Shown in pieces: positions 13,865 through 36,287 of a DNA stretch of 36,287 bases. The notes below the pieces were generated by a model. That model saw nothing but the letters and a program-made list of their open reading frames with translations. It was not told the DNA's origin and made no database searches. Made by a program: the position numbers and the translations under genes. The DNA lies in IMG/VR virus record IMGVR_UViG_3300022697_000102, positions 1-36,287 of that record; one strand, given 5' to 3'. The stretch's first letter is position 1. The number at the start of each line of letters is the position of its first letter. Origin of the DNA: a virus. Taxonomy: Duplodnaviria; Caudoviricetes.

Positions 13865-14004
13865 TGGGATTTGTCAGAGACTTAATTCATGACGTTTTTA
13901 TGTGGATACTTGTTTTTATGTTTATCGGCTTTATTATCGCCGGGACTACATCAACCGCCGCTGTCAATTTTGCAAGGAGGACATATCTTAAATATTCCCC
14001 CTAA
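13861..14004 (+). CDS. small putative membrane protein (47 aa, not in ORF track)
   Basis: MMGFVRDLIHDVFMWILVFMFIGFIIAGTTSTAAVNFARRTYLKYSP; ATGA-coupled to the tape measure stop. Confidence 0.45.
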   Translation: MMGFVRDLIHDVFMWILVFMFIGFIIAGTTSTAAVNFARRTYLKYSP

Positions 14005-17000: not shown

Positions 17001-17848
17001 CTTACGTTGTAACTAGCTCAGATGGTGAGGACTGGACAGAACGGGCGAACCCTAAAAATCAAAATTTGAATGGCGTAGCATGGAGTCCAGAATTATCACT
17101 TTTCGTCGCAGTCGGACAGCTAGACGGTGTTGATGCGTATATCATTACAAGCACCAATGGGATTACATGGCTGGAGCAAACAAACCCTAGTAATTTCACT
17201 TTATTGGCAGTGACATGGAGTCCAGAATTATCACTTTTCGTCGCAGTCGGCGGGTTCACAACCGATCCAGACGCATATATCATAACAAGCCCTAACGGGA
17301 CAGCGTGGACAGAACGAATCAACCCCAAAAACATTACATTACGGGATGTTGAATGGAGTCCAGAGCTATCACTTCTTGTGGCAGTCGGTGATTCTGATGG
17401 AGTAGATTCTTATCTAATAACAAGTCCTGACGGTATAACGTGGCTAGAAAGAGCAAACCCGAGCAATCTTAGGTTGAGATCAGTAACGTGGAGTCCTAAG
17501 TTGTCGCTTTTCGTCGCAGTCGGAGACTTTGACGGCACCGACGCTTATTTGGTTTCTAGTCCTAATGGTATGGATTGGACGGAAAGAGAGAACCCACGCA
17601 ATAATATACTGCAGTCAGTTGTGTGGAATGGCTTTATTTTCCTGGCTGTGGGGGGAAGTGTCATTGAAAAATACATAATCGGGTCAAGAAATGGTTTTGA
17701 TTGGTTTCGGAGAGATACAGGCATATCAGGGTCAAATCAACTACTAGCCCTATCGTGGAATGACGCAAGATTTTTGGCCGTAGGGCAAGCTGGGGGTCCA
17801 GGTGTCAATGCAGACATATTTTCATCCCTATCAATGATCGGAGAATAA
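13889..17848 (+). CDS. large tail-tip/hub protein with PKD domains and C-terminal Asp-box beta-propeller (start uncertain)
   Basis: LVFSGKITD, FQVGDFINI hub-like motifs; PKD (VTFTDASRDSDGTI.AWAWDF, NPTHTY, LKVTDN.G); seven roughly 45 aa repeats. Confidence 0.8.
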   Translation: MTFLCGYLFLCLSALLSPGLHQPPLSILQGGHILNIPPKLQQAFDNGNLEPVTYAELITEVLDAPASQNPAISGTNVDLTDPKAIRMNYPDSAGATSTFIDIGNTDQIVARPFFSTFTRGLSAGSYGFGPIGYQTFTLGEDSDAGQAKRLKNIHIDISATVQTSSIWQYKAAIFGVQGDLTLIDSNGVRIRSLAAIDNGIVSSNSVSAITTAKTSITFNFDNDLKGGNRYALILYLQSVPGATVGSTNVMKAEWYGSKTKQFPNERSVFIPTSRTGDFFDGEFSLQVDLAEYDPSPSPVVAVKFDLLETPTEAGEFSILDRNEKIIDAVTGLEQETSTAYHAWTTNATYAKGTGLDLGVIDISDTESLKIQTTELSRYYLLEVSLAATANGLRSPTFKGAIVKFPKTGALARLSSHPLPNFIDPVITAIKSAPIVPTKMDISNPITKRGKAKLNLVDIGGEITRLAIKQNLLNFTIEIRVGHAPTAKTKDDLALVFSGKITDYTYSEGELSITVEDRTKNLDIRIPRLGTDILRLKRVVIDSGEVKRDWKRDTIPGMLKDILKNESGILSRYIDTASIDAIELNLKAGDTLSPWKTPKEIREPEEASGLIKDVLNLIGGYLVSLEDGRIKIIQWPRPGPALGTWDADILTVDDKQPAGLIKSLVNFCMVSFDIKGDASNKGISAVADVDSIDEWAPGSEEHVSDRFIKTELLGDQLNYNGETIAHKVANRVVKTYKNGVVPMNVVTPFDQFRFQVGDFINITSPVFLKKFNLGSTARKFMITEKKPDIENNKISWSLMEDINHNRLPTAKFSSSVFFGTPSFNVTFTDASRDSDGTINAWAWDFDYDGVNFANPPDSTLQNPTHTYITSNIGIKRVRLKVTDNLGGQDETESTIRVLGAPTAIINATPSAPDQPPTTLLSSGSYGRTGEITKTEWDIGYNGVTFVSDFEGESTNVIHLSTDLIVALRVTDEDWAVSAIVTITIPASTKAIVPGVDVSSLLTTQWQKKDNPKNFWLTAVAWSQSLRLYVAVGLRDGGDAYVVTSSDGEDWTERANPKNQNLNGVAWSPELSLFVAVGQLDGVDAYIITSTNGITWLEQTNPSNFTLLAVTWSPELSLFVAVGGFTTDPDAYIITSPNGTAWTERINPKNITLRDVEWSPELSLLVAVGDSDGVDSYLITSPDGITWLERANPSNLRLRSVTWSPKLSLFVAVGDFDGTDAYLVSSPNGMDWTERENPRNNILQSVVWNGFIFLAVGGSVIEKYIIGSRNGFDWFRRDTGISGSNQLLALSWNDARFLAVGQAGGPGVNADIFSSLSMIGE
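16898..17820 (+). repeat. seven intragenic ~135 bp repeats (WSPELSLFVAVG...TSPDGITW)
   Basis: Protein repeats visible; identical 37 bp at 17079-17115 and 17214-17250. Confidence 0.9.
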
Positions 17849-17849
17849 A

Positions 17850-19715
17850 TTGGAAATCTTTCACAAGAACGTCTTGAGGCAATCCGAGCTTGGATTGGGA
17901 GATGGTACAATTTACGCCTCTGGAACAGTCAACCTAGAAACCGATATCAGCCAAGCCAACAGCACGTTTACCCTGACAGGCTTTACCCTTGACGCATTGA
18001 CAGGCACAGACACCGACGATTTGATGAACGGCTACCTGCTTTACTTCCCTGTATCCGGCAACAAATATCACGTAGTTGACTGGGTAGCCTCAACCGACAC
18101 CGCAACCACTCATGAGATGCCGCAAATTACTGACACGGGGGCGTGTGAGTTTAGGAAAGCACTTTTTGACAATAATGCCCTGGCATCGAACCCATTGCTT
18201 TATGCGGCGGACGGCAGGAAGGATAAAGCTTGGGACGCATCAATAAACAACCCAACAATAGAAATATATCTACCCAACGCCATTGACAATGGAGGTTTCG
18301 AGGGTGGTGCGCTAGCCCCCTGGTCAGATATTAAAATCGGCGGTGTATCGACGGATTATACAGCACTTGCGGAGGTCTCACAGCCTGAATTAAATGCAGG
18401 TGACGGCTACCAGTCAATGAGTGCGTTAACAATAACAGATGCTACAGGTGCAACATTCTATGTTTTTTTCGAGGCATTAATCACGACTGGGAATGATTTT
18501 TGGGCGTGGAATATTGAGAAAAATTCAACCTCTATCCAGTCTGGGGGCTGGAATGTGTCTTTGCACCCTGAAAGCACGGCAAGCCCCCACGTTTATACAA
18601 AATACAGAATGAAGTTGACAGGACTTATAAATAGCGATGTCATCAATATAAAAATGAAAGCGTCAGATATAAATGGTGATGGGATCGGATCGGGCGGGAC
18701 ACAAACCCTTTTTCTCAAAAATCTCATTATTTCGTCTGATGCTAGTGAAATAAATTCAGCATCGCAATTAGTAGGGAATTTCGATTACTTTCTAACCCTC
18801 GGAGGGAGAACCCAGAGAGGGATCGCACAGATTATAGATAAATTGAAAAAAGCCACAACATATCGGATCTTATTCAAGGCTAAATCCACATCCGGGTTTA
18901 TCCAAGGGCAATTTTGTATCACAATAGCAGGCAATCCAGGACTAGATCTAACTTTAACAGCACCATCATCAGGGAATTTGTCCGGGACTCATATATTTCA
19001 GCCTGCACTCACAACAACAGCAGCATGGCATTGGGTTGACATATCTACACCAAGTTGGGACGTAACAGGCTCAGTAATACAGGTAAATATTTTAGATGGT
19101 GCATTCGATGTAAATGTAGATGAGATCTATATATTTGAAAAAATAAACGTGTCAAGCCTGATTTTAACTGAACAGGGCAGTGGGTATACCAACATTACTT
19201 CAATAACAGGACGGAATGTATCATTATCCAGGACAGGGGCAACAGATCCAATTGTGATGTCAAGCCCTGGAATAATTACCAGGATTCCCGTTGAATTTAC
19301 ACCATTGATCCGGCCAGTTTATTCAATAGAGTTCACCTTTTCTGATTCAATACCAGAAATTCTTTTGGGCGAGAAATGGCAATGGGAGTTTAATCCTGAC
19401 ATGCCATTTGATGCTGATGCAATAGAATATGATGAGAAAACAATAAAAAGCAGATCAGGAGTTGAAAGTATAGTCCGGCACAGCAAGAAAAGAACTATAA
19501 AAGGCAAATACTCTAAAATGTCGGCCATTGAAAGGGCTATTCTAAAAAATGATTTTTTTCCAAACCACATTGATGAAGAGAGACATCCGTTCGCGTACCG
19601 ACTCAACCAGACAGACACACCATTGTTCGTTCGTGTTTCTCAAAGTAAATTTGGACTTAATCGTTCCAGCGGATTGCGGGATGATTGGGATTTTGCATTT
19701 GATGAGGTTTTGTAA
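17850..19715 (+). CDS. tail protein with carbohydrate-binding-like insert, possibly distal-tail (Dit)-like
   Basis: IDNGGFEGG..PWS CBM-type start and DEIYIFE end; tail module position. Confidence 0.6.
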   Translation: MEIFHKNVLRQSELGLGDGTIYASGTVNLETDISQANSTFTLTGFTLDALTGTDTDDLMNGYLLYFPVSGNKYHVVDWVASTDTATTHEMPQITDTGACEFRKALFDNNALASNPLLYAADGRKDKAWDASINNPTIEIYLPNAIDNGGFEGGALAPWSDIKIGGVSTDYTALAEVSQPELNAGDGYQSMSALTITDATGATFYVFFEALITTGNDFWAWNIEKNSTSIQSGGWNVSLHPESTASPHVYTKYRMKLTGLINSDVINIKMKASDINGDGIGSGGTQTLFLKNLIISSDASEINSASQLVGNFDYFLTLGGRTQRGIAQIIDKLKKATTYRILFKAKSTSGFIQGQFCITIAGNPGLDLTLTAPSSGNLSGTHIFQPALTTTAAWHWVDISTPSWDVTGSVIQVNILDGAFDVNVDEIYIFEKINVSSLILTEQGSGYTNITSITGRNVSLSRTGATDPIVMSSPGIITRIPVEFTPLIRPVYSIEFTFSDSIPEILLGEKWQWEFNPDMPFDADAIEYDEKTIKSRSGVESIVRHSKKRTIKGKYSKMSAIERAILKNDFFPNHIDEERHPFAYRLNQTDTPLFVRVSQSKFGLNRSSGLRDDWDFAFDEVL

Positions 19716-21048: not shown

Positions 21049-21408
21049 ATGGCGGAGCATCGGGATATGAGCGAATATACCACTAAAAATACAATGTATT
21101 GGATGACGGGAATTATAATCGGTGCAGTCCTTGCGGCTGTTTCGGGCGGGTATTCAATGACGGCGGCGCACGTTGAGGGGGTTGTTCAAGAGCATAATAA
21201 GCACCCTCATGACAACGCGGTGGATGTTCGTGTTTTTTCAGCTCTAAACGGCGCACAAAATAAAGTAGTTCAGGGTTTATCAAAAAGAGTCATAAAAACA
21301 GAGGATGAGGTTGACCAGAACCATGAAATGATTAAAAACGTAGAGACAAGATTGACAGGGATTGAAACCGCGCTTGAATTTCTCGTGGATGAGGCGAAGA
21401 AAAAATGA
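21049..21408 (+). CDS. membrane-anchored coiled-coil protein (lysis-associated?)
   Basis: One N-terminal TM helix plus C-terminal heptad pattern. Confidence 0.55.
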   Translation: MAEHRDMSEYTTKNTMYWMTGIIIGAVLAAVSGGYSMTAAHVEGVVQEHNKHPHDNAVDVRVFSALNGAQNKVVQGLSKRVIKTEDEVDQNHEMIKNVETRLTGIETALEFLVDEAKKK

Positions 21409-21791
21409 AACATTTAGTCCTCCTGCTACTATTAATCTCCCCTCCCTTGGCCCACGCTCAAACCACGCTCCAAACAGCGACAGCAACGCTCACATGGGAC
21501 AGCAACACAGAGTCGGACATGGACAGCTACATTATGCTCATCGGTAGCACATCGGGGGTGTACGGAAGTACCCGCCCCGTGGTACATGTGCAAGGTGTGC
21601 CGAAGCAGACGGGGAAATTTACAGGACTTGACGAGGGTAAGGTGTACTATTTCGCAGTCAAGGCGTGTGACACCAGTGGGAATTGCTCAGACCTATCTCA
21701 AGAGGTTTCGGGTGGCGTTACAATCCCACCCAACAGCCCTTCTGGACTCAGCGTGACTTTTGAAATCAACATAGAGGTAACAATACCATGA
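21405..21791 (+). CDS. secreted fibronectin type III domain protein
   Basis: Signal peptide ending AHA; TLTWD...Y...FTGLDEGKVYYFAVKA.D.SGN.S..S.EV. Confidence 0.85.
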   Translation: MKHLVLLLLLISPPLAHAQTTLQTATATLTWDSNTESDMDSYIMLIGSTSGVYGSTRPVVHVQGVPKQTGKFTGLDEGKVYYFAVKACDTSGNCSDLSQEVSGGVTIPPNSPSGLSVTFEINIEVTIP

Positions 21792-22168
21792 GCGATTACC
21801 ACGTCAGAGAGTCAAGCCGGGATGGTCGATCAGTGAGGGTCATCTTTCACGTCCCTGTGCCAGTTGAGGTGAATCAATCCGGGAAGCCGTTGCGGGACTC
21901 AATCAGCGAAGGCGGTGAGGTTAGGGGCAATGATGGGTCTGTCCGAAAGGTGAGATCCGAGTTGAAGCGGCTAGATTCAGCCGAGAGAATCAACCTGGAA
22001 AATGGCGTGATTGTAGAGGTTGTTGAAAGCATCCACTTCAAGGCAAACGCTACGAAAATACAAAAAACGAATAAAATAGATGCAAAGTTTAATAAATTGA
22101 AAAATTCCGCACTTAAAAGAACACGTACTAAATTTGAACTTTTTGGCCTCAACCGTAATGTCGTTTAG
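21788..22168 (+). CDS. hypothetical protein
   Basis: ORF with RBS, coupled start. Confidence 0.6.
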   Translation: MSDYHVRESSRDGRSVRVIFHVPVPVEVNQSGKPLRDSISEGGEVRGNDGSVRKVRSELKRLDSAERINLENGVIVEVVESIHFKANATKIQKTNKIDAKFNKLKNSALKRTRTKFELFGLNRNVV

Positions 22169-22177
22169 GAGTATATA

Positions 22178-22669
22178 ATGCCCGCTAAAATATACCAAAA
22201 CACTGAAACAGCAGTCACCTGGAGGGGGTCAGGGGGTTCAGAGCTTATAACGCTTGCGAGTCTTGGAGCCGGAGTCGGTCGCCAGGGGGCATTGCATGAT
22301 TTTGGCGCAGGTGCGAGAGCAAGAGAGGGTATGTGGAGAGCTTTCATCCGGTGGAACACGGCTCCATCATTAGGGGAGATTGTCAGAATTTACTGGAAGA
22401 CATCGGACGGAATGAACCCCGACAATGATGACGGAACTGGGGACATCTCAGTGAGCAATGAAAACAAGCTGAAGAACCTCCAGTTGATTGGGGTGATAAT
22501 CGCAGATGAGGCACTTGCTAATATACCTTCAGTAGCCCACGGGATAATAGATATGCCACATCGGCACGGCGGTCCGGTCTTCTGGAATGCTTCAGCGACG
22601 GATATTCTGCATTCTACAGCGGCTAATCATGGTTTTGACATAACCCCAATCCCTTGGGAGTCCCAATAA
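22178..22669 (+). CDS. putative virion structural protein
   Basis: AGGAG RBS; beta-rich 163 aa upstream of LamG protein. Confidence 0.55.
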   Translation: MPAKIYQNTETAVTWRGSGGSELITLASLGAGVGRQGALHDFGAGARAREGMWRAFIRWNTAPSLGEIVRIYWKTSDGMNPDNDDGTGDISVSNENKLKNLQLIGVIIADEALANIPSVAHGIIDMPHRHGGPVFWNASATDILHSTAANHGFDITPIPWESQ

Positions 22670-22670
22670 A

Positions 22671-23501
22671 TTGTCGGCCTTTATTAAACAAGCCAGCTCA
22701 CCATCATATGTCAACGGATTTGCGCGTTCTCCTGGCCAGTCTGCAAACCCAGGGCTATGGCGGGAGATGGTGGAGGCGATATACCCGGCAATGGGAAACA
22801 CTGGCCTATTTATTGAAGACTTGGGGACAGAACCAGAAGATGTAAATTTTGCAGGTGGTCTGGGGCATGACGATTGGCGCGTTGGGGATAACGCAAGTTT
22901 AAATGGCTATGCGTTGGACTTTTCAAATGGTGGAGAGCGGCTTGACTTGGGAGATTCAAAGAAATTTGATGGCGCGAGAGCTGTCTCATACGCAGGCTGG
23001 TTTTACTTTAAAGGGGCCGGAGGAACGCAATCGATTGTCCGAGAGGATGGGACCGTTACATTCTTCCAGCTTGCGGCCGGGGCCGTGCAGTTTGCGTTAT
23101 GGGCTCCGGTTCTAACGAGTCATCGTTTTTTCATCTCATTAAATATCGGCGAGTGGACACATTTTGCAGCTAGATGGGCGAATAACGTCAATTCGGGCAC
23201 CCCTGAGTTTTTTATGAACGGCAAGAATATGGGGAATTTTACAAAATCCAGCACAGGAACGATTGCTAGTACCACAAAAGCATCTGTATATGGTGCAACG
23301 GAAACAGGCGGAGAGCGATTCAACGGTCTGATGCAATCGTGCCTAAAGTACCGGAGGTTTCTATCAGATCCGGAGATCAAACAACTTTACTTGGATGCGA
23401 TGGCACCTTTTAGGCTTCGTAGGTCGATGATCCCGTTTGCGATAGCAGCGGGTGTGCCAATAGGCATCCCATCATTAGTAATGGCACCAATGCAAGTATA
23501 G
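22671..23501 (+). CDS. LamG/concanavalin A-like domain protein
   Basis: GYALDFS, SYAGWF, GEWTHFA, FFMNG, FNGLM....Y.R.LS..EI.QLY. Confidence 0.85.
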   Translation: MSAFIKQASSPSYVNGFARSPGQSANPGLWREMVEAIYPAMGNTGLFIEDLGTEPEDVNFAGGLGHDDWRVGDNASLNGYALDFSNGGERLDLGDSKKFDGARAVSYAGWFYFKGAGGTQSIVREDGTVTFFQLAAGAVQFALWAPVLTSHRFFISLNIGEWTHFAARWANNVNSGTPEFFMNGKNMGNFTKSSTGTIASTTKASVYGATETGGERFNGLMQSCLKYRRFLSDPEIKQLYLDAMAPFRLRRSMIPFAIAAGVPIGIPSLVMAPMQV

Positions 23502-23507
23502 GAGGAT

Positions 23508-23942
23508 TTGATGGCTTTATATAGTTCAGGACTTTTGACAGGCGCAGGATCTACCACACTGCCTGTAATTAGCCTGTATGCAGCGTCAGGCGTTGCGCCA
23601 AAAATAAAAGAGATTGGTGTTTTCAATACAACCGCAATAGCAGTGGCCTTAAAATTGGTTCGCCTTACAACGACGGGGACTCAAGGATCGGGGCAGGTTG
23701 AGGCAAAGCATGACCCTGACTCTGTTTCTTCTTCAGGCACAGCCTTCGCCACTCACACGGTGGGACCAACGCTAGGCGATGATTTGGGTTATCGTAATCA
23801 GCTAGGCGCTGCTGTTGGGTCTGGGATCATATGGACATTTGAGGGTCTTAGGATTCCGATTGGTGTTGCAAACGGTATCGGCGTGATCGTTGAGAACGGC
23901 ACGGGACAAGCCCTGCAAGCCTATATAAAGTGGGAGGAATAA
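23508..23942 (+). CDS. putative virion structural protein
   Basis: AGGAGG RBS; Gly/Thr-rich beta protein ending WEE. Confidence 0.6.
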   Translation: MMALYSSGLLTGAGSTTLPVISLYAASGVAPKIKEIGVFNTTAIAVALKLVRLTTTGTQGSGQVEAKHDPDSVSSSGTAFATHTVGPTLGDDLGYRNQLGAAVGSGIIWTFEGLRIPIGVANGIGVIVENGTGQALQAYIKWEE

Positions 23943-24148
23943 TGGTCGTTTTCGGCTTCTGTCTCCACACGTTTAAAAACAATATGAAGCAACGAATCAA
24001 GGGCTTATTTTCAATGTCTTCACGGGGCCGGGTTTTATCTAAATCAATGCCGAGAGGGGCAATAAGACCCAGCCGTGTTTATCGGGCCGCTGAGAATAAG
24101 TGGTATTCAGTTGATGAAATTTATAAATTGCAAAAGGAGGGGAAATAA
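23942..24148 (+). CDS. small basic hypothetical protein
   Basis: GGAGG RBS, TAATG coupling on both sides. Confidence 0.5.
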   Translation: MVVFGFCLHTFKNNMKQRIKGLFSMSSRGRVLSKSMPRGAIRPSRVYRAAENKWYSVDEIYKLQKEGK

Positions 24149-24507
24149 TGGCTACAGTCTTAACCGATATTGGAGAAGCATATGTTGTAGATCGCATCAC
24201 AGGAGCGTCATCAGTCAAAGCGGATGATGTGGGCTGGGGAACAGGAGCAGGCACAGCCGCAAAAGCCGATACTGTCCTTTTTACGGAGGCGGCGGAATCC
24301 AGGGTCGCAGCAGTAGAAACACAGCCATTAGCAGATAAGGTGCAATGGGTTGCCACAATAACTGCGGCTGCGGGTAAGACGATTACGAACGCTGGCAATT
24401 TTGATGCCCCTACAGGTGGCAACCTGGTAATACACGGAGATTTCACGGGAATTGTCTTAGCAACTGGGGATAAAATCGAGTTTACAATCTCTCTCGAAAT
24501 TACTTAA
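24148..24507 (+). CDS. fibre/collar attachment-like structural protein
   Basis: LTDIGEA, GWGTG...A..ADT.L.TE, ITNAG.FDA.TGGN resemble fibre N-terminal adaptor domains. Confidence 0.6.
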   Translation: MATVLTDIGEAYVVDRITGASSVKADDVGWGTGAGTAAKADTVLFTEAAESRVAAVETQPLADKVQWVATITAAAGKTITNAGNFDAPTGGNLVIHGDFTGIVLATGDKIEFTISLEIT

Positions 24508-24519
24508 GAAGGCATTTAA

Positions 24520-25929
24520 TTGAGCAATCTTGTCCGGTATAAAGTTCCGATCATACGCCCTGGGCCTGATAACAGGTCTAGGGTTATTTTTGATCTACTT
24601 GCACCGTCCGGCCCGACTACTTTTTTTCAATCAATGTCCGTGGCAGCGTCATCGCCTGGTGTCATATCAGCAGGGGCCTCGTTTTTTAGGTCTATTTTAG
24701 TCGCTTCATCGACTATTCCGATCCTTGTCATGGCTGGTTCTTTTTTTAAGGCTATGGCTATAGCATCTTCCACAGTTCCAGTATTGCAGAGGGTGGGAAC
24801 ATACTCCAGATCCATGATATCAGTATCAACATCAACGCCTATTTTATCCAGGGTCACGTCTTTTTTTAGGTCAATGCCCATTATTTCCACGACTACGCCA
24901 ATAATCTCAAAAGTCAGAACCGTAATCCAGTCCATTATTGCTTCGTCTTCTACAATCTCCGTAGTGGTAATTGTATCGACTTTTTTCAGGTCTTTTCAGA
25001 TTTCATCTGCTACGAACCCAGTTATTTTGACGGCTAAATTGCGGCTTTTAGCAATGGCAGTTATTTCAACCGGGGCATTAACATTTTCAAACATTCTAAC
25101 CGCTGTTAAATCTCTTACAGTAGTATCAAATACAACCCAGATAATCGGCAAGGCAGCAACATTCTTTCGGGCCATCCCCATTGTTGCAAATGGGAGTGCT
25201 GTTCTGTCTAAAGGTATGTTTATTGTTATGGCTGTTGCTTCCGCTACAATCCCCACGCTTGAGAAGGGTTTTCTTTTTATTAAATCATTGGCCGCTGTGT
25301 CTTCTACTGTTCCAATCTTAGATAAAATACAACTTAAACTCGCGTCATTAGTCATTGCATCTACCACAATACCATCTCTTTCAAGTATCAAAACAGCCAT
25401 TATTTCTTTTTTGGTAGCATCAAGCGCATTGCCAGGGCTTTCAAGGGCAGCATCGTATTTCAAGTCGCTCAATATTGTCTCAACATCAATCTCTATTATC
25501 TCCAGGGTTGCGACATTCTTCCGATCAATCGGGAGCATTTCCTCAACAATCCCCAATATGGCAGTGGCACAGCTTAAACTCGTCTCTATGTCTGTAATAT
25601 CCTCTACGATGTCAGGTCTTTCACGGGGGCTTGTCGTGGTAAAATCATTGATTGGAGTCGCAGTGACGCTACCCGTGATTGTAAGGGCGGTGACGTTTTT
25701 CAGGTCATTTATTGTGATTTCTTCGGCAACACCGATATTATCCAGAGTAGCGTTGTTTTTCAGGACAATGTCCGCAACAACGATAATCGGGACAATACTC
25801 GCATCTGTGTTTATCATCGGGGCTACTGTCAATAAAATATTATTCGATATCAGGGATGCTATTTTCAACAAAACAAACACAAGAGACGCTACTTTTAATA
25901 AAAACGATAAAAGGGATGGTGATTTCTAA
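24520..25929 (+). CDS. 20-aa tandem-repeat protein, putative fibre
   Basis: About 20 copies of [TS]FFRSxxIxSSTxPILSRVx. Confidence 0.7.
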   Translation: MSNLVRYKVPIIRPGPDNRSRVIFDLLAPSGPTTFFQSMSVAASSPGVISAGASFFRSILVASSTIPILVMAGSFFKAMAIASSTVPVLQRVGTYSRSMISVSTSTPILSRVTSFFRSMPIISTTTPIISKVRTVIQSIIASSSTISVVVIVSTFFRSFQISSATNPVILTAKLRLLAMAVISTGALTFSNILTAVKSLTVVSNTTQIIGKAATFFRAIPIVANGSAVLSKGMFIVMAVASATIPTLEKGFLFIKSLAAVSSTVPILDKIQLKLASLVIASTTIPSLSSIKTAIISFLVASSALPGLSRAASYFKSLNIVSTSISIISRVATFFRSIGSISSTIPNMAVAQLKLVSMSVISSTMSGLSRGLVVVKSLIGVAVTLPVIVRAVTFFRSFIVISSATPILSRVALFFRTMSATTIIGTILASVFIIGATVNKILFDIRDAIFNKTNTRDATFNKNDKRDGDF

Positions 25930-29245: not shown

Positions 29246-29989
29246 ATGGAAGGATTGGCCGAATTAGCAAAAGCAGTCATTGGAGTCATGAAAGATGTCA
29301 GAGGTATGGAGAAGGGATCTCATGTTGGTTCAGGTAGAAGCGCATATGATGGGACAAAAGATCAGGACGTTAAAGATGCGTTTAACAGCGCGATGGTTAA
29401 TCATGGACTCTGCATTTTGCCGGTAGAGATTAAAGAGGAGACAAAAATAGATAGATGGGAGGCTCCTGATCCCTACAAAGAAGGGAAGAAAGTAACAAAG
29501 CAGAGCGTTTTTACCAAAGTCTTAACTCGATATCTACTCCTGCATGAGTCGGGGCAAAGCAAAATTATATCTGGCTATGGACATGGGGTCGATCCTCAAG
29601 ATAAAGGCGCAGGTAAAGCAACTACATACGCTCTAAAAAATGCGTTACTACTGACATTCTTGACCCCAGTCGGGAAAATGCCAGACACAGACGAAACGCA
29701 TTCTGGAGATATTGAGACAAAGCCCAGCCAGAACGGAACAAGGCCGAAAGCAGAAAACGAGATAACGAAAGATTATAAATTTTTGCACCAAGTCGGGATG
29801 GTCAAAGCTGAACTTTTTGAGGCAGTCGGGGGCGAAGTAGGCGAGAAACTTTACCGCGCAGAACTAAAAATAAGAGGATGCAAAAAATCAAATGAATTAT
29901 TGGACAGAAAAGACCAAGTGGGGTTCTATCAGGCCATTGGGGTCTTGATCGAAGAATCCAAAAAGACGGAGGCAGAAAATGGCAAATAG
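29246..29989 (+). CDS. ERF-family single-strand annealing protein
   Basis: LLHESGQ, G.G.D.QDKGAGKATTYALKNALL..F...D.D. Confidence 0.88.
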   Translation: MEGLAELAKAVIGVMKDVRGMEKGSHVGSGRSAYDGTKDQDVKDAFNSAMVNHGLCILPVEIKEETKIDRWEAPDPYKEGKKVTKQSVFTKVLTRYLLLHESGQSKIISGYGHGVDPQDKGAGKATTYALKNALLLTFLTPVGKMPDTDETHSGDIETKPSQNGTRPKAENEITKDYKFLHQVGMVKAELFEAVGGEVGEKLYRAELKIRGCKKSNELLDRKDQVGFYQAIGVLIEESKKTEAENGK

Positions 29990-30326
29990 CTCGGTGGTGG
30001 TACAAATGGGGCATCTAACCAGAGATATTGACATTATGACGACAACATCAGGCGTTACGATAGCATCGTTCGGGTTGGCAACCAATCATAAATATAAAGA
30101 CAAAGAAGAGGTATGTTTTATTGATGTCAAAATCTTCGGGGCATTGGCTGAGAATTGCGTCAAATATCTCTCGAAAGGATCGGCTTGCCAGGTAATCGGT
30201 CGGTTGTCTTTGGACAGATGGGATAAGGACGGCGTTAAACATCAAAAGCATGTGATTGTTGCAAGCTCTGTTGTTTTTCTGAGTTCAAAACAAGGTAATA
30301 ATGAAGATGATCAGGTTCCGTTTTGA
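29979..30326 (+). CDS. ssb: single-stranded DNA-binding protein
   Basis: GHLTRD, FGLATN, FG.LAENC.KYL.KG, GRL, acidic DDQVPF C-terminus. Confidence 0.95.
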   Translation: MANSSVVVQMGHLTRDIDIMTTTSGVTIASFGLATNHKYKDKEEVCFIDVKIFGALAENCVKYLSKGSACQVIGRLSLDRWDKDGVKHQKHVIVASSVVFLSSKQGNNEDDQVPF

Positions 30327-30835
30327 AGAAAAATTATCTTTACCTGGACATCGAAAAGCGAAAAGAAATAGATGCCTACCTAGAAGCATCCGGAGGGGAA
30401 TTCGCAACCGACAATCAGGAAAAAGAATATGACCGCCTTGACTGGTCGATTGATGCAAATGTGGTTGATTACATAAAAGCCTGGAAAGAAAAAAAGGCTT
30501 TAATTGACTCAATTAAAGCCGAAATAACCCGCATGAAGGACTACTTGGATGCAGAGGTAAAAAGACAAGAAAGTATTGAGCAGTCTCTTAGGTTTGCCCT
30601 TGACGATAGGCATACGGAAAGCCTTGATTACGGGATTAACTCGGTATCTTTATGTAATGTCGCACCATCACTTCCTCCAGCAGAAGAAATAGAAGATATG
30701 GTGCCAGATGCCTACAGGATAGAAATACCTGCCACATCAAAGGTTGATCGTCGGCTTTTGTTAAAGGGGGTCAAGGCTGGAGACGTTTTCGGCATAGAAT
30801 TAATTACTGATAAAAAACGGTTGAAGGTGTCATGA
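30323..30835 (+). CDS. siphovirus Gp157-like protein
   Basis: Coiled coil (IKAEITRMK), VPDAYR, KVDRRLLLKGVKAG...G.EL; follows ERF and SSB. Confidence 0.7.
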   Translation: MKKNYLYLDIEKRKEIDAYLEASGGEFATDNQEKEYDRLDWSIDANVVDYIKAWKEKKALIDSIKAEITRMKDYLDAEVKRQESIEQSLRFALDDRHTESLDYGINSVSLCNVAPSLPPAEEIEDMVPDAYRIEIPATSKVDRRLLLKGVKAGDVFGIELITDKKRLKVS

Positions 30836-30931: not shown

Positions 30932-31243
30932 CTATAACGTAGAGATAACACGCATACTACAGACACAACCCTAATGCAGATAAGGTGATGTGATCTATAC
31001 AAAATACATAAATCTAAAGAAAGCGCATTTACGATTTTTATTACGGGTCTCAAGGCTTTTAAAACAAAAGTCAAACGTAATAAAAAATAGTACACTTATG
31101 ACACCAACGTAATATACAGTGTACTATTTTTTATGCCTTGAGTGCAACCTTGGCTTTGTGTTTTATTATTTCTCATGTTGCATGCTCGGCACGGCGATGA
31201 GATTACGAAGTGTTCTGCGGTCGGGTTGAGTGATTGGTTGGAT
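30932..31243 (-). repeat. split or degenerate attC-like site (arms 30932-30971 and 31206-31243)
   Basis: Both arms align to the intact site at 34681-34766. Confidence 0.7.
31080..31134. repeat. 17 bp perfect inverted repeat with 21 nt loop
   Basis: ATAAAAAATAGTACACT / AGTGTACTATTTTTTAT. Confidence 0.9.
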
Positions 31244-31259
31244 TTATTAGAGGTAGGGC

Positions 31260-31637
31260 ATGGCAAACATTGGAAAAGCAATGAAGGAAGATATGGCAAT
31301 CCTTAATGGCCACGGGTCTTATGGTCATTTTAGCTGTAATCACTTGTTAGATTTGGATGATTTAGGCGGTGATGGATACCCTACAGTAAAAAGCTTGGAG
31401 AACATATCAAATTATACGGGCGACTTTTATCACTTGATTGATTCAATTTCTTTCATGTTTTCAGAATACGGGAGATGCGAATTAAGTAGATGTGGCAACA
31501 GGTGGGAGGTTGATACCGGAGGATGGAGCGGATGCGAAAGCGTTATTTCAGCTTTAGAAAGAAACCGTCTTTTTTGGGCTAAATGTTGGTTTCTTTCTAA
31601 ACGGGGAGGATATTATGAATTCATGACTAAAATATAA
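31260..31637 (+). CDS. cassette gene, phage-type hypothetical protein
   Basis: TGGWSGCESVISAL..N..FW...W..S.RGG.Y.F; stop TAA lies in the attC box. Confidence 0.75.
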   Translation: MANIGKAMKEDMAILNGHGSYGHFSCNHLLDLDDLGGDGYPTVKSLENISNYTGDFYHLIDSISFMFSEYGRCELSRCGNRWEVDTGGWSGCESVISALERNRLFWAKCWFLSKRGGYYEFMTKI

Positions 31638-31714
31638 CGTAGAGCTAACCCGCCGCCCTACGACACAAACCGAAGGCCGAGAATTTTTTCGGTAGGTTTA
31701 GAGGTTAGTTGTGT
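31632..31714 (-). repeat. attC-like site (degenerate right arm)
   Basis: ATATAAC GTAGA GCTAACCCGCCG ... CGGTAGGTTTAGA GGTTA GTTGTGT. Confidence 0.75.
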
Positions 31715-31735
31715 TGTCGAAGAATGGAGGAAATT

Positions 31736-31996
31736 GTGAAACTATTAATAGATTGCGATTGTGGTGCAGATATCCTTAAAGTCGAAAAGATTTGGGAAGA
31801 TAAAAGCAAGGGTCAATATTTGATTTGGCTCTGTATGTATAAGGGTGGATCGATGCACTGGTGGAACCGAGTCAAAGCCTCTTGGAATTATTTTTTATAT
31901 GGGGAGTTTTTTTATAATGATATTACTTTGGATCAAAATCAAATGGATGAATTCATTAATTTTCTAAACACAGTTAAGGCAAGCGAAGTTGTATAA
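31736..31996 (+). CDS. cassette gene, hypothetical protein
   Basis: GGAGG RBS then GTG; IDCDCG motif. Confidence 0.7.
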   Translation: MKLLIDCDCGADILKVEKIWEDKSKGQYLIWLCMYKGGSMHWWNRVKASWNYFLYGEFFYNDITLDQNQMDEFINFLNTVKASEVV

Positions 31997-32000
31997 TATT

Positions 32001-32084
32001 GAGTAACGCCAATGTTCAGCGGGCCGCAACGGACTTTGAGGCGACGCAAGGCGTAAACGGCTCCGCTGGAACGACTGGTTAGCT
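32001..32084 (-). repeat. attC site
   Basis: Minus strand: AGCTAAC CAGTC GTT(C)CAGCGG(A)GCCG ... CGGCCCGCTGAAC ATTGGC GTTACTC. Confidence 0.9.
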
Positions 32085-32099
32085 GGAAAAGGAGCGAAG

Positions 32100-32294
32100 A
32101 TGAAGATTTTATGTAAAACAAGTAATTGTCGTGGAGAAATGAAGCCTGGTATTGCTACAGGGCAGACGTTTGGATTGCATCTTGATTTTATTGGTGAACC
32201 CCCTGGAAGAGGCTGTACAATGTCGCCGGGAGGTCCGGGGAAACTTATCTCTGTTTTGAAATGTGAAAAGTGCGGGTATAGTTTTTCCATCTAA
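32100..32294 (+). CDS. cassette gene, zinc-ribbon protein
   Basis: AAGGAG RBS; CKTSNC...KCEKCG; stop lies in attC box. Confidence 0.75.
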   Translation: MKILCKTSNCRGEMKPGIATGQTFGLHLDFIGEPPGRGCTMSPGGPGKLISVLKCEKCGYSFSI

Positions 32295-32748
32295 CGACCG
32301 GATCACCCGCCGCCCCACGGCTACCAAAAGAAGATAATACGAGGACTGCTATAGTATTGTCTTTCGTTTTATCATCATCTGAAAGACTGAAAATAAGAGA
32401 CAATAACGCCCATGGAACAGCAGCAGAAAACATTCTCAATACCCACTCTGGCAAACTGAAGGGAGTAAAACTATGATTTATATAAGCATTAAGATCATCC
32501 GTAAGTCTCTTGTGGATTTTCAGGAAGTCATTATTGATAGATTTTTTTATATTATCTTCAAGTGCTACCAGTTTATCAAGAAGTGTTGTTGCTCTTTCAA
32601 TTCTGCTCAGTCTAAAGTGACCCGTATAATTTTCGTAAGTGATGATTATCGCAACGACCAGAAAAGATAGTGTCAAAATGAACAACAATCGTTTCCATGT
32701 GAAGTCAGTTACTAATTTTTCAAGGAACTGAAATATAGGATCGAACAT
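32245..32748 (-). pseudogene. membrane-protein cassette gene, probably 3'-truncated
   Basis: TM helices; C-terminus (SRGAAGDPVVR...) is read through the attC half site and antisense to the neighbour gene. Confidence 0.6.
32289..32318 (-). repeat. attC half site (left arm only)
   Basis: ATCTAAC GACCG GATCACCCGCCGCCC. Confidence 0.7.
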
Positions 32749-32761
32749 ATTAAATTATGAG

Positions 32762-32789
32762 TCCTAACGTAGCGGTAAACCGGCCGCTG
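32762..32789 (-). repeat. attC half site (left arm only)
   Basis: TCCTAAC GTAGC GGTAAACCGGCCGC. Confidence 0.65.
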
Positions 32790-32818
32790 AATGAATTGAA
32801 TAAAATAGGAGGGTAATA

Positions 32819-33165
32819 ATGACAACTTGGGGAATGTATTGGTTTACAAGATTAGACAATCTGCAAGGATTAGGAGTAGCAGGGGCAATTGCATGTGGTG
32901 TCGGTCTTTTTGGTTTAGTTTTGGTATCAACAATAGAAGGGACTGACCACGCTAATAAATGGGGTTTTAAGTTAGGTTCTTTTTTTTTATGTTTCTCCTT
33001 CTATCGCTATTTACCCCCACTCAGAAAGAAGCTGCGGAGATTTGGTTGATACCAAAAATGTTAAATAACGAGCAGATCGGCAATATAGTCGCTAATTCTT
33101 TGGAGATATTGGAAGCTAAAACCAAGGAATATCTTGATGATTTAGCTGAAAAAGAAAGCAACTGA
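32819..33165 (+). CDS. cassette gene, membrane protein split by a frameshift at a T9 run
   Basis: Frame 0 MTTWGMYWFTRLDNL...; -1 frame MFLLLSLFTPTQKEAAEIWLIPKMLNNEQ...KESN stops just before the next attC. Confidence 0.7.
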
Positions 33166-33181
33166 CGGCTGGGTATTTTCC

Positions 33182-33267
33182 ACCCAACGTAGCGATAACC
33201 CAGCCGACAACGGGCCAGCCTGAAAGCCGCGAAGTATTACCGGCTCGGGTTGATTGCCTGGTTGGGT
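33182..33267 (-). repeat. attC site
   Basis: ACCCAAC GTAGC GATAACCCAGCCG ... CGGCT(C)GGGTT(G)ATT GCCTG GTTGGGT. Confidence 0.9.
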
Positions 33268-33287
33268 GGATAAATGGAGGGTGTAAA

Positions 33288-33485
33288 ATGGAAGACTTTT
33301 CTGCATGGGAAGCGATATTGAAATTGCTAAATAAGGCGGAGTATATGGGGGTAGTTTATGAATATGATGATGGATATAAATCCTTTATCTGCCCTATATG
33401 CAAAAAAAGGGAAGGGCATGGGCATTATTCTGGTTGCGAATTGGAAAACGCAAAATCAATAATTAGTTCGATGCTTTATAGTTAA
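33288..33485 (+). CDS. cassette gene, CxxC-H-C zinc-finger protein
   Basis: GGAGG RBS; CPICK....GH...C. Confidence 0.7.
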   Translation: MEDFSAWEAILKLLNKAEYMGVVYEYDDGYKSFICPICKKREGHGHYSGCELENAKSIISSMLYS

Positions 33486-33507
33486 ATAGATGATGGTATT
33501 ATTTTCC

Positions 33508-33593
33508 ATCCAACGTTGAGCTAACCCGCCGCCCAGAGACCCTGCCAGAAGGCCGCAAAGTAATGCCGAGTCGGGTTCATTGCCTTGTTAGGC
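33508..33593 (-). repeat. attC site (imperfect arm pairing)
   Basis: ATCCAAC GTTGA GCTAACCCG ... TCGGGTT(C)ATT GCCTT GTTAGGC. Confidence 0.85.
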
Positions 33594-33610
33594 ATTTTTG
33601 GAGAACAGAC

Positions 33611-33829
33611 ATGAAAAACTGTAATGATTGCAAGTATTCAGAATGGGATAAAACAAAAATTGGGAGACTTCACCCATCCGGTTCTGGGAGATGTACTTAT
33701 CCATTTGAGGTTCCAGCCCTGCCACAGTCAATGTATTGGGTCGGTAAAAATACACCCCACCCAAACGGTGGGCAGATAAATAGAAAACATGTATTTGAAA
33801 ACAATTGCGTATATTATGGCCCAGCCTAA
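33611..33829 (+). CDS. cassette gene, Cys-rich hypothetical protein
   Basis: GGAG RBS; MKNCNDCKYSEW..T..GRLHPSG.GRC; stop lies in attC box. Confidence 0.75.
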   Translation: MKNCNDCKYSEWDKTKIGRLHPSGSGRCTYPFEVPALPQSMYWVGKNTPHPNGGQINRKHVFENNCVYYGPA

Positions 33830-33908
33830 CGTTTAGTTAACCCGCCAGCTACCGGCACAACCTAAAATCGAGAAGCGTTACCTGGTCGGGTTTATCTACT
33901 GGTTAGGT
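33824..33908 (-). repeat. attC site
   Basis: GCCTAAC GTTTA GTTAACCCGCCAG ... CTGG(T)CGGGTT(T)ATC TACTG GTTAGGT. Confidence 0.9.
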
Positions 33909-33954
33909 TTGTTTTAAGGATGTATTTTATCTTTAATTTGTTTTCTCTGATCGC

Positions 33955-34024
33955 TTGACATAACCGCTTATGATATGTTAATTTAGATCATGAGCAACGC
34001 GCAAACAAACAAGGAGAAAACAAA
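33955..34024 (+). promoter_or_regulatory. cassette-internal promoter and leader (copy 1)
   Basis: TTGACA-18 bp-TAATTT with TG extension; 32 bp identical to 35510-35541; AAGGAG RBS. Confidence 0.75.
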
Positions 34025-34234
34025 ATGATCGAATCTGGACTATTAAAAGCTGAAAATTTAGGTGGGAATGCTTTTCTTAATGGCGCAATGAGTGCCCCAT
34101 TCTTAGATGCAGAAATGATGAGAATGCTTGAAGGAAACAAAGACAGAGACAACGGAATAAGGTTGATGAAAGCGTGGCACAAAGGATATTACAACGCAAA
34201 TGTGGTGGCGATGGATGCGATGCCCACACTGTAA
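34025..34234 (+). CDS. cassette gene, hypothetical protein
   Basis: RBS and promoter upstream. Confidence 0.7.
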   Translation: MIESGLLKAENLGGNAFLNGAMSAPFLDAEMMRMLEGNKDRDNGIRLMKAWHKGYYNANVVAMDAMPTL

Positions 34235-34382
34235 AAAGGGAATAGATGACAAAGAGATTTCTGCCTATCTTGGTTCAAAGGGTGGGCGGACTTCTAAGCG
34301 AGAAATTTCAAAAGAGGCACAGGCAAAAATGCAAACCGCAAGAAAAAAGTCAAAACCAAAACAGAAAAAGACTGCAACCTAA
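34215..34382 (+). CDS. cassette gene, small basic protein (CPHC, LGSKGG), possible DNA binder
   Basis: MRCPHCKKGIDDKEISAYLGSKGGRTSKR; stop lies in attC box. Confidence 0.65.
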   Translation: MRCPHCKKGIDDKEISAYLGSKGGRTSKREISKEAQAKMQTARKKSKPKQKKTAT

Positions 34383-34462
34383 CGCTCGGGTTAACCGGCT
34401 CGGCGACGACTGGGTGTGAAATCGAGAAGCATTACCGCGTCTGGTTTAACCCCTGGTTAGAT
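34377..34462 (-). repeat. attC site
   Basis: ACCTAAC GCTCGG GTTAACCGG ... (T)CTGGTT(T)AAC CCCTG GTTAGAT. Confidence 0.9.
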
Positions 34463-34479
34463 TGATTGGAGGTAAGACG

Positions 34480-34686
34480 ATGAAAAGAAAAGAAGACATT
34501 CAAAAGCCAAAAGAATTAAATAGCTGGGATTTCTCTGACAGAATCCAAGTCCCAGATGGGTATGATTTAAAGACTATCCCAGATATGACAAGAGATAATA
34601 TGCAAACCCTGATAGAAGAACACAATCACTTAGTTCGAGTTGTGCTGAGAATATGTCAGGAGAAGCAAATAATATTTGAAATCTAA
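34480..34686 (+). CDS. cassette gene, hypothetical protein
   Basis: GGAGG RBS; stop lies in attC box. Confidence 0.75.
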   Translation: MKRKEDIQKPKELNSWDFSDRIQVPDGYDLKTIPDMTRDNMQTLIEEHNHLVRVVLRICQEKQIIFEI

Positions 34687-34766
34687 CGTTGAGCTAACCC
34701 GCCGCCCACAGACACAACCCGAAGGCCGCGAAGTGTTATGCGGTCGGGTTGAGCGACTGGTTATCT
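34681..34766 (-). repeat. attC site (clearest example)
   Basis: Minus strand: AGATAAC CAGTC GCT(C)AACCCG(A)CCGC ... GCGGCGGGTTAGC TCAAC GTTAGAT. Confidence 0.95.
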
Positions 34767-35344
34767 CATTTTGGGGTATGTGATGGTTTTTCAATTTTCT
34801 CTGGTTCATTTTCTTGCTCTGCTAGTTGTCTGTTCGATCCTTGGTTTTTCTGCTGGATATTTTTCAGGTCGCCGAAAACTTGTTCAAGAGCTTGTGAAAT
34901 ATTTACTTCAACATGGACAATCTGATTTGGCGAATCGGGTTTCTGTTTTGAGAAATGAAGACAGACCATAACAATAATTGCAAAATACGCGGCAAGTTCT
35001 GCAGCATTTTTTGGCAAGAAGCGAGATAATGAGGAAAGAAATGGGAACTTTCTGGAAATTTCAGTTTTTATTTCTTCAGCGTTCGCGCCATTAAGTGCCT
35101 TATTTCTCAGAAATTCAATAGCGTAAAGGACAAGATTGCATTCAATGGTGTTAAAGATTCTTGCTGAAGCATGAGTGTATATCCCATCTGGAATTTTTCC
35201 AGTGCCTTTGCATTTTGGGCATGGGCAAGCCTTATTCCCTATGGATTGAACCGAAAGAAGAGGGCCAGTACCAAAAATGCTATTGGAGAACCAAACTGTT
35301 TCGCAATGCGGCGTTTCGCAAATCACTGGGACTAGAGGTTGCAT
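34766..35344 (-). CDS. cassette gene in canonical attC orientation; zinc-ribbon plus TM protein
   Basis: 192 aa fills the cassette; CETPHC...CPKCKG.G.IPDG.Y; stop abuts the attC. Confidence 0.8.
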   Translation of the reverse strand: MQPLVPVICETPHCETVWFSNSIFGTGPLLSVQSIGNKACPCPKCKGTGKIPDGIYTHASARIFNTIECNLVLYAIEFLRNKALNGANAEEIKTEISRKFPFLSSLSRFLPKNAAELAAYFAIIVMVCLHFSKQKPDSPNQIVHVEVNISQALEQVFGDLKNIQQKNQGSNRQLAEQENEPEKIEKPSHTPK

Positions 35345-35363
35345 ATTTTATTAACCTTTGTCG

Positions 35364-35449
35364 AGATAACGCTCGGGTTAACCGGCGCGACTAGGGCAAT
35401 ATGTGAAATCGAGAAGTGTTACCGCGTCGGGTTTAACCCCTGGTTGGGC
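35364..35449 (-). repeat. attC site
   Basis: AGATAAC GCTCGG GTTAACCGGCGCG ... CGCG(T)CGGGTT(T)AAC CCCTG GTTGGGC. Confidence 0.9.
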
Positions 35450-35490
35450 AGATTTAAGTATGGATCTTTATTTTGCTTTGTTGAATACGC

Positions 35491-35561
35491 TTGACAGTTA
35501 CATCGTGACTATGTTAATTTAGATCATGAGCAACGCGCAAAACAACAAAGGAGAAAATAAA
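35491..35561 (+). promoter_or_regulatory. cassette-internal promoter and leader (copy 2)
   Basis: TTGACA-18 bp-TAATTT; same leader as 33974-34005. Confidence 0.75.
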
Positions 35562-35771
35562 ATGAGAACATTAATTGATAATAGAAAAGACGCTGCGGAT
35601 ATATTGGTTGAATATGCAAACGGTGGCAGCTTCACACTAAAATTGCAAAACAATGTTGACCTTGGAAACCGACGCGGAATAAAGGCCACATATGAAAATG
35701 GCATGATCGAGGTGACGACTAAAAAGCTGGATAGTCTCTCTAAATTATATAAAGTTGAATGCAATTTTTAA
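35562..35771 (+). CDS. cassette gene, hypothetical protein
   Basis: AAGGAG RBS; ATG in the same position as 34025 relative to the shared leader. Confidence 0.7.
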   Translation: MRTLIDNRKDAADILVEYANGGSFTLKLQNNVDLGNRRGIKATYENGMIEVTTKKLDSLSKLYKVECNF

Positions 35772-35775
35772 TCAC

Positions 35776-35949
35776 ATGCCGATGACCAGCGCGGAAAAGA
35801 TGACCGCCCTTCGGAAACGTCGGGCGGAAGCTGGGATCGTAGAGCGCACATACTGGGGCAAAGAAGAAGATCACAAAAAAATGAAAAATATTGAGTCCGC
35901 TTTGTTGGCTAGGATTAAAAGGGCCAACATGAAAAAGATTGAGACCTAA
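35776..35949 (+). CDS. cassette gene, small putative RHH-like regulator or antitoxin
   Basis: MPMTSAEKMTALRKRRAEAGIVERTYWG; homologous to 26359..26520; stop lies in attC box. Confidence 0.7.
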   Translation: MPMTSAEKMTALRKRRAEAGIVERTYWGKEEDHKKMKNIESALLARIKRANMKKIET

Positions 35950-36027
35950 CGTAGCGATAACCCTGCCACCAAGGGCACGATCTAAAATCGACGAGTAACA
36001 CTGCTCGGGTTGAGGGACTTGTTGTAT
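35944..36027 (-). repeat. attC site (imperfect arm pairing)
   Basis: ACCTAAC GTAGC GATAACCC ... TCGGGTT(G)AGG GACTT GTTGTAT. Confidence 0.8.
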
Positions 36028-36044
36028 GGAAAAGGAGAAACGAC

Positions 36045-36242
36045 ATGACCCATTCATTGAAGATTGAAGAGCCGTATTTAGAAGCAAAATTAGACGGACA
36101 TAAATTGTTTGAAATAAGATTCAACGATAGGGGTTTCCAGAAAGGGGACACAGTAGAATACACTGAGTATTCCTCCTCTACTTTTGAGTACACCAAACAC
36201 TATTTTGAGATAACTTACGTCGTTGTCTTCTGCCGGTGGTAA
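36045..36242 (+). CDS. cassette gene, DUF3850/ASCH-like protein (C-terminus possibly truncated)
   Basis: MTH.LKI...Y......G.K.FEIR.NDRGFQKGD...ITYV. Confidence 0.8.
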   Translation: MTHSLKIEEPYLEAKLDGHKLFEIRFNDRGFQKGDTVEYTEYSSSTFEYTKHYFEITYVVVFCRW

Positions 36243-36287
36243 CAGACCTTCACGAATATTAACCTGTATCGAGGGCAAGATTAGCCG

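Follow-up and report, generated by a model that had tools for sequence, protein, structure and literature searches.

A row of attC-type sites with genes mostly on the bottom strand in a tailed-phage contig

The window analysed here is the whole of IMG/VR record IMGVR_UViG_3300022697_000102, a linear viral contig of 36,287 bases that is estimated to be 74% complete. It belongs to a lambda-like tailed phage: PHROGs matches give, from the left end, terminase, portal, protease, capsid, tape measure, endolysin-like and holin genes, all on the plus strand. On the same strand lie genes for an Erf-like annealing protein (29246–29989), SSB (29979–30326) and a Mu Gam-like protein (30323–30835) (PHROGs; 155, 44 and 253 for the Erf–SSB–Gam block). 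Directly downstream of these early recombination genes, twelve attC-type sites follow one another between 30932 and 36027 (about 5.1 kb), with short genes between them and one more gene after the last (to 36242). The layout is that of a cluster of attC sites lacking an integron integrase (CALIN), that is, several co-oriented attC sites close together in a contig without a match to the tyrosine recombinase family PF00589, a classification that applies to the sequenced 74%.

All twelve site positions share a YAAC-G left box. An earlier note, made from the DNA letters alone, had counted nine full sites, one split site and two half sites, and this count held: full sites begin at 31632, 32001, 33182, 33508, 33824, 34377, 34681, 35364 and 35944 (83, 84, 86, 86, 85, 86, 86, 86 and 84 bp, respectively), the site at 30932 is split, and those at 32289 and 32762 consist of the left arm only. 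Every full site ends in GTTA or GTTG and has the AAC and GTT core triplets in its terminal R boxes (9/9). When the nine are aligned, bases pair in 89.5% of 152 cells, and two-sided changes are seen in 9 of 17 pairs; for the inner helix, formed by paired L boxes and set off from the R boxes by unpaired spacers of 5–6 nt, 87.1% of cells pair, with two-sided changes in 8 of 13 pairs. None of 500 shuffles matched the nine-site value for pairing or for two-sided changes, and registers slid by 1–3 columns paired in at most 46.7% of cells; these controls lean towards the proposed structure because it was drawn from the same nine sequences, and the figures count as support for that structure rather than as a probability. 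The right arm of the plus strand carries the two unpaired bases that had been described on one arm, with a G in four of the nine sites and T or C there in the rest. A model from the nine sites scored nothing above 11.4 bits elsewhere in the window, and an author-built model gave 63–74 bits for bacterial sites beside a true IntI (locus L086). An Rfam search returned no matches.

The polarity of the sites was read from these unpaired bases. On the plus strand, each site has AAC-G first and the unpaired T and G on the opposite arm. In the published text on integron sites, the bottom strand has its unpaired bases across from AAC (PMC5027507), most of them are G and T, and a G comes after the AAC of R′ (PMC2727003); the supplement of PMC9892861 prints an aadA7 bottom strand with the same layout as the plus strand of the window. 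Because the unpaired bases stand opposite AAC and a G follows AAC, the plus strand is the attC bottom (recombined) strand. Ten of the twelve units are inverted, with the gene on this bottom strand and the site ahead of it, and thus differ from a textbook cassette, in which a top-strand gene has attC downstream; the remaining two have a minus-strand gene in the textbook arrangement. The earlier note had recognized the sites and the cassettes, and this part of its interpretation stands; it had overlooked the bottom-strand placement of the genes and the two exceptional units, and its view that the cargo runs throughout with the phage operon fails for those two. All ten plus-strand starts checked have a ribosome-binding motif (background ATG: 26 of 126 on the plus and 1 of 64 on the minus strand). 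Genes begin 22–28 bp past the site in seven single-gene units, and the stop codon lies inside the YAAC box of the next site in six of the nine plus-strand units with a known next site.

When a cassette is circular, its R″ end pairs with R′ at the other end of the cassette, so that in an array the four bases to the right of one site should complement the four to the left of the next. Full 4/4 matches occur in four of nine neighbour pairs of the window, and these are consecutive: the right flanks of 33508, 33824 and 34377 each complement the left flank of the following site, and ATCT to the right of 34681 complements the unusual left flank AGAT of 35364. An exact test over all 362,880 permutations gave a mean of 0.78 matches (p=0.004), the right box of the degenerate site 31632 having been chosen among four candidates. 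In the wider viral and bacterial sets, neighbouring ends matched in 54 of 71 and 124 of 148 pairs, respectively, and in the control a site's own two ends matched in 10 of 94 viral and 41 of 236 bacterial sites; for the viral set, none of 20,000 permutations reached the observed value. Ends that are complementary across genes indicate that the units were once circles, that is, cassettes, as the earlier note had proposed.

The sites, all on the plus strand, delimit the following units. At the distal end, the split site (30932..31243) consists of a left arm from 30932, a 240-bp insert and a right arm at 31206–31243 (families D1 and D5), and would be the oldest end of the array. Its insert holds a perfect 17-bp inverted repeat with a 21-bp centre (31080–31134), which could serve as a terminator or an operator, or could mark one end of a small mobile element. 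The first inverted gene (31260..31637, 125 aa) has its stop inside the YAAC box of the full-length but degenerate site 31632..31714. Its product, with 22 homologues and 15 viral loci, belongs to a phage family of unknown function, and the predicted fold (pLDDT 82) matches two uncharacterized phage proteins, with no PDB match at E 0.001. Next come an inverted gene of 86 aa without a family (31736..31996; GTG start with a ribosome-binding motif), the full site 32001..32084 with its unpaired T and G on the right arm, and an inverted gene of 64 aa with CxxC motifs (32100..32294), whose stop is inside the YAAC box of the half site 32289..32320. Beyond the half site 32762..32790 lies an inverted gene for a hydrophobic protein (32819..33166) that is frameshifted, with open frames on either side of a T run at about 32980–32988; the frame change may stem from an assembly error or from decay of the gene, or may act as a phase-variable switch. 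The full site 33182..33267 is followed by an inverted gene of 65 aa (33288..33485), the full site 33508..33593, an inverted cysteine-rich gene of 72 aa (33611..33829; stop inside the next YAAC box) and the full site 33824..33908.

A two-gene inverted cassette (33909..34382; genes 34025–34234 and 34200/34215–34382) comes next, the second gene of which encodes a small basic protein with viral look-alikes at 0.91–0.93. The full site 34377..34462, an inverted gene of 68 aa (34480..34686; stop inside the next YAAC box) and the full site 34681..34766 precede a minus-strand unit, after which the full site 35364..35449, 82% identical to site 34377 (family D4), opens a second two-gene inverted cassette (35450..35949; genes 35562–35771 and 35776–35949). 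Each two-gene cassette has one promoter-like TTGACA-N18-TAATTT, at 33955 and 35491 (family D9), which a consensus scan did not score. The two share a 52-bp leader that is 85% identical (33955–34025 and 35491–35562), their gene pairs are unrelated, and each ends in a small basic protein, possibly an autoregulator. The last full site in the contig (35944..36027) is followed by an inverted DUF3850 gene (36045..36242; PF12961, E 7e-15), the C terminus of which is shorter than in three viral homologues. A 17-bp repeat (15/17 identical) occurs at 35349–35365, in the leader of the minus-strand unit, and at 36257–36273, among the last bases of the contig; because of this repeat and the shortened DUF3850 gene beside it, the contig end may be rearranged. 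DUF3850 apart, none of 16 window open reading frames (ORFs) tested has a Pfam family, and PADLOC matched none of 14 cassette proteins. Phage-like cargo had been expected from DUF3850, which the Pfam match bears out, and from small zinc fingers, for which CxxC motifs are what can be seen.

The two minus-strand units appear from their sequence to be host-type cassettes in the bacterial layout, one of them truncated. The gene at 34766..35344 (192 aa) stops directly before the R″ box of site 34681 and starts about 20 bp past the R′ box of 35364. It has six homologues at 47–58% identity. In one bacterial genome, a homologue stops immediately ahead of an attC-like site in textbook orientation (L310); that site has a weak model score of 16.8 bits, and its boxes are visible by eye. 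Two other genome matches for the family had no site, and the family was present in 1 of 301 and 2 of 401 sampled genomes. The other gene (32245..32748; predicted membrane protein) has its start immediately past the R′ box of site 32762, and its frame stays open across the half site 32289, which suggests that its 3′ end was lost together with the right arm of that site. Its look-alikes in the Atlas are bacterial hypothetical proteins at 0.87–0.88, a lead only.

To compare the layout across loci, one pattern was run on viral contigs (24 loci) and bacterial genomes (129 loci in the portion scanned), followed by covariance models R1 and R2. The viral set scored comprised 20 loci: the window, L001, 16 of the 24 pattern loci (five duplicates, two without a model match and one weak single site were dropped) and two published phages. 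The bacterial set was drawn from 76 of the 129 loci, those left after exclusion of four overlapping loci of one contig and 49 unlisted loci; from these 76, one further overlapping locus was dropped. Judged by the longest ORF between sites, viral intervals were inverted in 36 cases, textbook in 9 and unclear in 27, and bacterial intervals in 10, 129 and 24, respectively. By locus, the counts were 12 inverted, 3 textbook and 3 tied for viruses against 2, 46 and 2 for bacteria (Fisher p=1.4e-8 on loci). A ribosome site and start just past the site were found on the bottom strand at 38 and on the top strand at 3 of 92 viral sites, and at 11 and 62, respectively, of 238 bacterial sites. A first orientation metric (viral 46/8/18, bacterial 15/127/21) was replaced, as it cut ORFs entering sites and gave wrong calls for three bacterial loci and one interval of TJE1. 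Annotated genes of the published phage PH101 lie on the bottom strand, and MW202573 leans inverted. G exceeds C on the bottom strand in 17 of 19 viral arrays, compared with 17 of 53 bacterial arrays, and the median unit length is 368 bp in viruses versus 608 bp in bacteria.

The other viral arrays also bear on exchange and cargo. Loci L030 and L044 are 87–93% identical over a 4.6-kb tail region and have attC types in common but no cassette DNA. In viral arrays, attC cores that are 99% identical are joined to unrelated genes; flank identity did not show with which side the site travels. Pfam matches were obtained for 19 of 116 proteins of other arrays, and the named cargo includes DNA methylases, Dam, Mom, HNH and GIY-YIG nucleases and RNA ligase. 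Of 23 array ends examined, ten had a matching YAAC downstream, and three of these ten had TAA-N6-GTT on the top strand (background 91 of 10,140, or 0.9%), a pattern that was chosen after looking and is that of the attI printed in PMC9892861. The only match of an inner-motif scan, L331, was rejected as chance, lying in a coding region without attC.

Several individual sites stood out. Two phage sites (L034:21–80 and L044:5256–5315) are nearly identical to the aadA7 site of class 1 integrons, as printed in PMC9892861, and have inverted genes. An 87-bp attC is 100% identical in two otherwise dissimilar phage loci (L040, region 11242–11991; L048:10809–10899); the model did not list it in L040, so some arrays hold more sites than were counted. 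In L036, L026, L040 and L048, sites seem to have a ribosome-binding motif and start codon inside the hairpin loop, so that the gene would start within the site. A metagenome contig (L256:3031–8395) has five or six co-oriented attC-like matches of about 226 bp, above the usual attC range of up to about 140 bp.

We consider it likely that the array comprises twelve integron-type cassettes, ten of them backwards, that are excised and inserted as circles by an integron integrase, likely that of the host. This proposal builds on the sites and their polarity, on the direction of the genes, on end matches between neighbouring sites and on a contig that has no recombinase match. Following established integron chemistry, crossover would take place at AA|C on the bottom strand, and the unit would be a site with its downstream gene, spanning the crossover of one site to that of the next, with the gene's stop often supplying the R′ core. 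Host IntI would perform the recombination. New cassettes would enter at an attI beyond the right edge, leaving the oldest, decayed sites at the left; all three broken sites and the degenerate site are in the left half of the array, which fits entry from the right. The Erf–SSB–Gam early operon and the two cassette-borne promoters would read the array towards attI, the reverse of a bacterial Pc. The phage would then express phage-type cassettes, which would fall silent in a host integron, and host-type cassettes would land antisense in the phage and decay, as one of the two here may have done. In the text of PMC5371416, bottom strands on the lagging-strand template excise more often. Should the plus strand, whose GC skew is positive, serve as the lagging-strand template, inversion of the cassettes would keep recombination high, which remains a guess because skew also follows the coding strand. 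By analogy, PH101 lends the proposal indirect bench support, as the bottom strands reported in PMC9892861 to be recombined by IntI1 are those that carry its genes.

The identity of the recombinase is where the proposal meets its first rival. In addition to PF00589, intI, attI and Pc were sought in the window contig and none was found, in agreement with the earlier note that the window has no integrase; the predicted attI side is beyond the right edge. An IntI or Xer-like enzyme of the phage's own could be encoded in the missing quarter of the genome; the array would then belong to a complete integron of the phage, with cassettes in mirror image. With about 26% of the genome missing and the array cut off by the contig edge where attI is predicted, there is room for such an enzyme, yet we regard this as unlikely. 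Tyrosine recombinases were found in 2 of 15 viral records searched whole, and five of six site-bearing viral records that are at least 90% complete have none, among them a complete 37-kb genome with terminal repeats and an Erf 71% like that of the window. The sixth has an ordinary integrase, at 22 bits against an integron-integrase cut-off of 265. A profile from ten bacterial IntI-like proteins likewise found only ordinary integrases in the viral loci, and the same site family adjoins a true IntI in bacteria (L086; TIGR02249, 487 bits). We judge it very improbable that the array is part of a host integron, reached at the end of a prophage or through a chimeric assembly. The contig is linear and its right flank lies outside the sequence, as such a junction would allow; bacterial arrays of the same site family, however, are textbook in 46 of 50 loci, and 10 of the 12 window units are inverted. 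The cargo has viral relatives, and GC content and GC skew continue without a step into the array, the plus-strand skew being positive throughout. In other viral records, arrays lie among helicase, primase, terminase, portal or tail genes, and those of L026, L027, L041 and L047 are flanked by phage genes on both sides, in line with the earlier assignment of the array to the phage rather than to adjoining host DNA.

A different rival is that the cassettes, once made by an integrase, are now fixed early genes that change by Erf annealing between similar sites or by deletion. The three early recombination genes directly upstream would suit such a relic, as would the three broken sites, the degenerate site, the frameshift, the truncated gene and the weak folds, and homologues of two cassette genes occur in phages without attC. 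Against it, the four perfect end matches are at consecutive junctions (33508 to 35364), paired positions covary, and the intact host-type cassette has the same site polarity, as insertion by an integrase predicts. We therefore give the relic little credence, less than a recombinase of the phage's own and more than a host junction.

Insertion and excision of the cassettes by a host integrase, the explanation that we favour, has points weighing against it. Single-site folds of the plus strand are weak: z is below −2 in one of nine (33182, z −2.88), the only site that folds far better than shuffles, and near zero in most. Most minimum-energy folds are not the full R-to-R hairpin, which is the best plus-strand fold for 33182 and nearly so for 33824. 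With such folds and with 3 of 12 sites broken, some of the array may no longer be active. The last gene stops in a TAAC whose flank mismatches site 35944. An array is present in only 1 of 24 Erf relatives. Among the 15 viral homologues of the 31260 gene, none has attC beside it and one locus has any site match, and none of three DUF3850 loci has a site beside the gene, so these two genes are not confined to cassettes. In the orientation comparison, sites that share a locus do not count as independent, and for 27 of 72 viral intervals the longest ORF gave no clear answer; exceptions to inversion in phages are TJE1, which is textbook, and L029 and L041, textbook on a single interval. Given a linear contig at 74% completeness, the sequence past its right edge could hold an integrase or host DNA. 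No close relative of the window phage was found in which gain or loss could be followed: terminase and Gam searches of viral contigs, a search with the exact site pattern and a comparison of the array DNA with phage GenBank records each returned none. The best terminase matches (36–44%) do not name a host, and the best bacterial matches to the sites, in Nitrospirota records (57 and 54 bits), are too weak to do so. No terminal repeat was found in the contig. Outside the array, two large proteins without a PHROGs match (1319 and 621 aa) follow the tape measure gene, and a block of genes mostly without a PHROGs match follows the lysis genes (window regions 13889–19715 and 21049–25929).

The presence of attC in a phage, offered as a novelty in the earlier note, had already been published: PMC9892861 lists 17 phage attC clusters (CALINs without an integron integrase) in 10,705 genomes, and five of six phage sites were recombined by IntI1, including those of PH101 on their bottom strands. 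Like the window, these clusters combine attC and small genes in tailed phages without IntI. Its Table S1 gives 2–4 sites per phage, compared with twelve here, and its text makes no remark on gene polarity and describes neither a mixed array with host-type cassettes nor a decay gradient, a comparison that covers the text apart from figures and Dryad files. Within our search, which covered openly available papers rather than subscription papers and bioRxiv supplements, we found no report of an inverted layout of phage attC arrays. What the window contributes is a single row of twelve units, with a gradient of decay along it from left to right and with two host-type cassettes among phage-type ones. 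Sedentary chromosomal integrons, as described in the text of PMC5027507, PMC2727003 and PMC5371416, resemble it in their R and L boxes, unpaired spacer and unpaired G and T; their ends are also complementary across cassettes, and the same site family occurs in bacterial arrays. The window differs from them in its bottom-strand genes, a site before the gene, a stop in R′, phage-type cargo and the absence of any visible intI or Pc. CTXphi with XerCD (text of PMC4792948) parallels our proposal in that a host tyrosine recombinase, as is likely here, acts on a folded single strand; its site integrates the whole phage and has no unpaired bases, in contrast to the window sites, which bound single genes inside a phage.

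Integrons are taught as bacterial devices, in which the polarity of the sites points genes away from the Pc promoter. On a wider view, which we hold tentatively and with somewhat less than even confidence, tailed phages would keep a mirror-image cassette pool that they trade through host integron integrases, with reversed polarity as a firewall: phage genes would be read from phage promoters, and host cassettes, many of them anti-phage, would enter silent. Storage of anti-phage genes in host integrons has been reported (text of 10.1101/2024.07.02.601686). The array in the window may have caught this two-way traffic, and near-identical attC cores on unrelated genes may point to cassettes made in phage populations. 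As the text of PMC4792948 notes, cassette genesis is without a reliable model, and the 99% identical cores on unrelated genes offer material for testing it. If true, small early genes of phages would form a pool that is selected for rapid exchange and tied to host integrons, and a phage class of opposite polarity would be integron chemistry put to work on the virus side.

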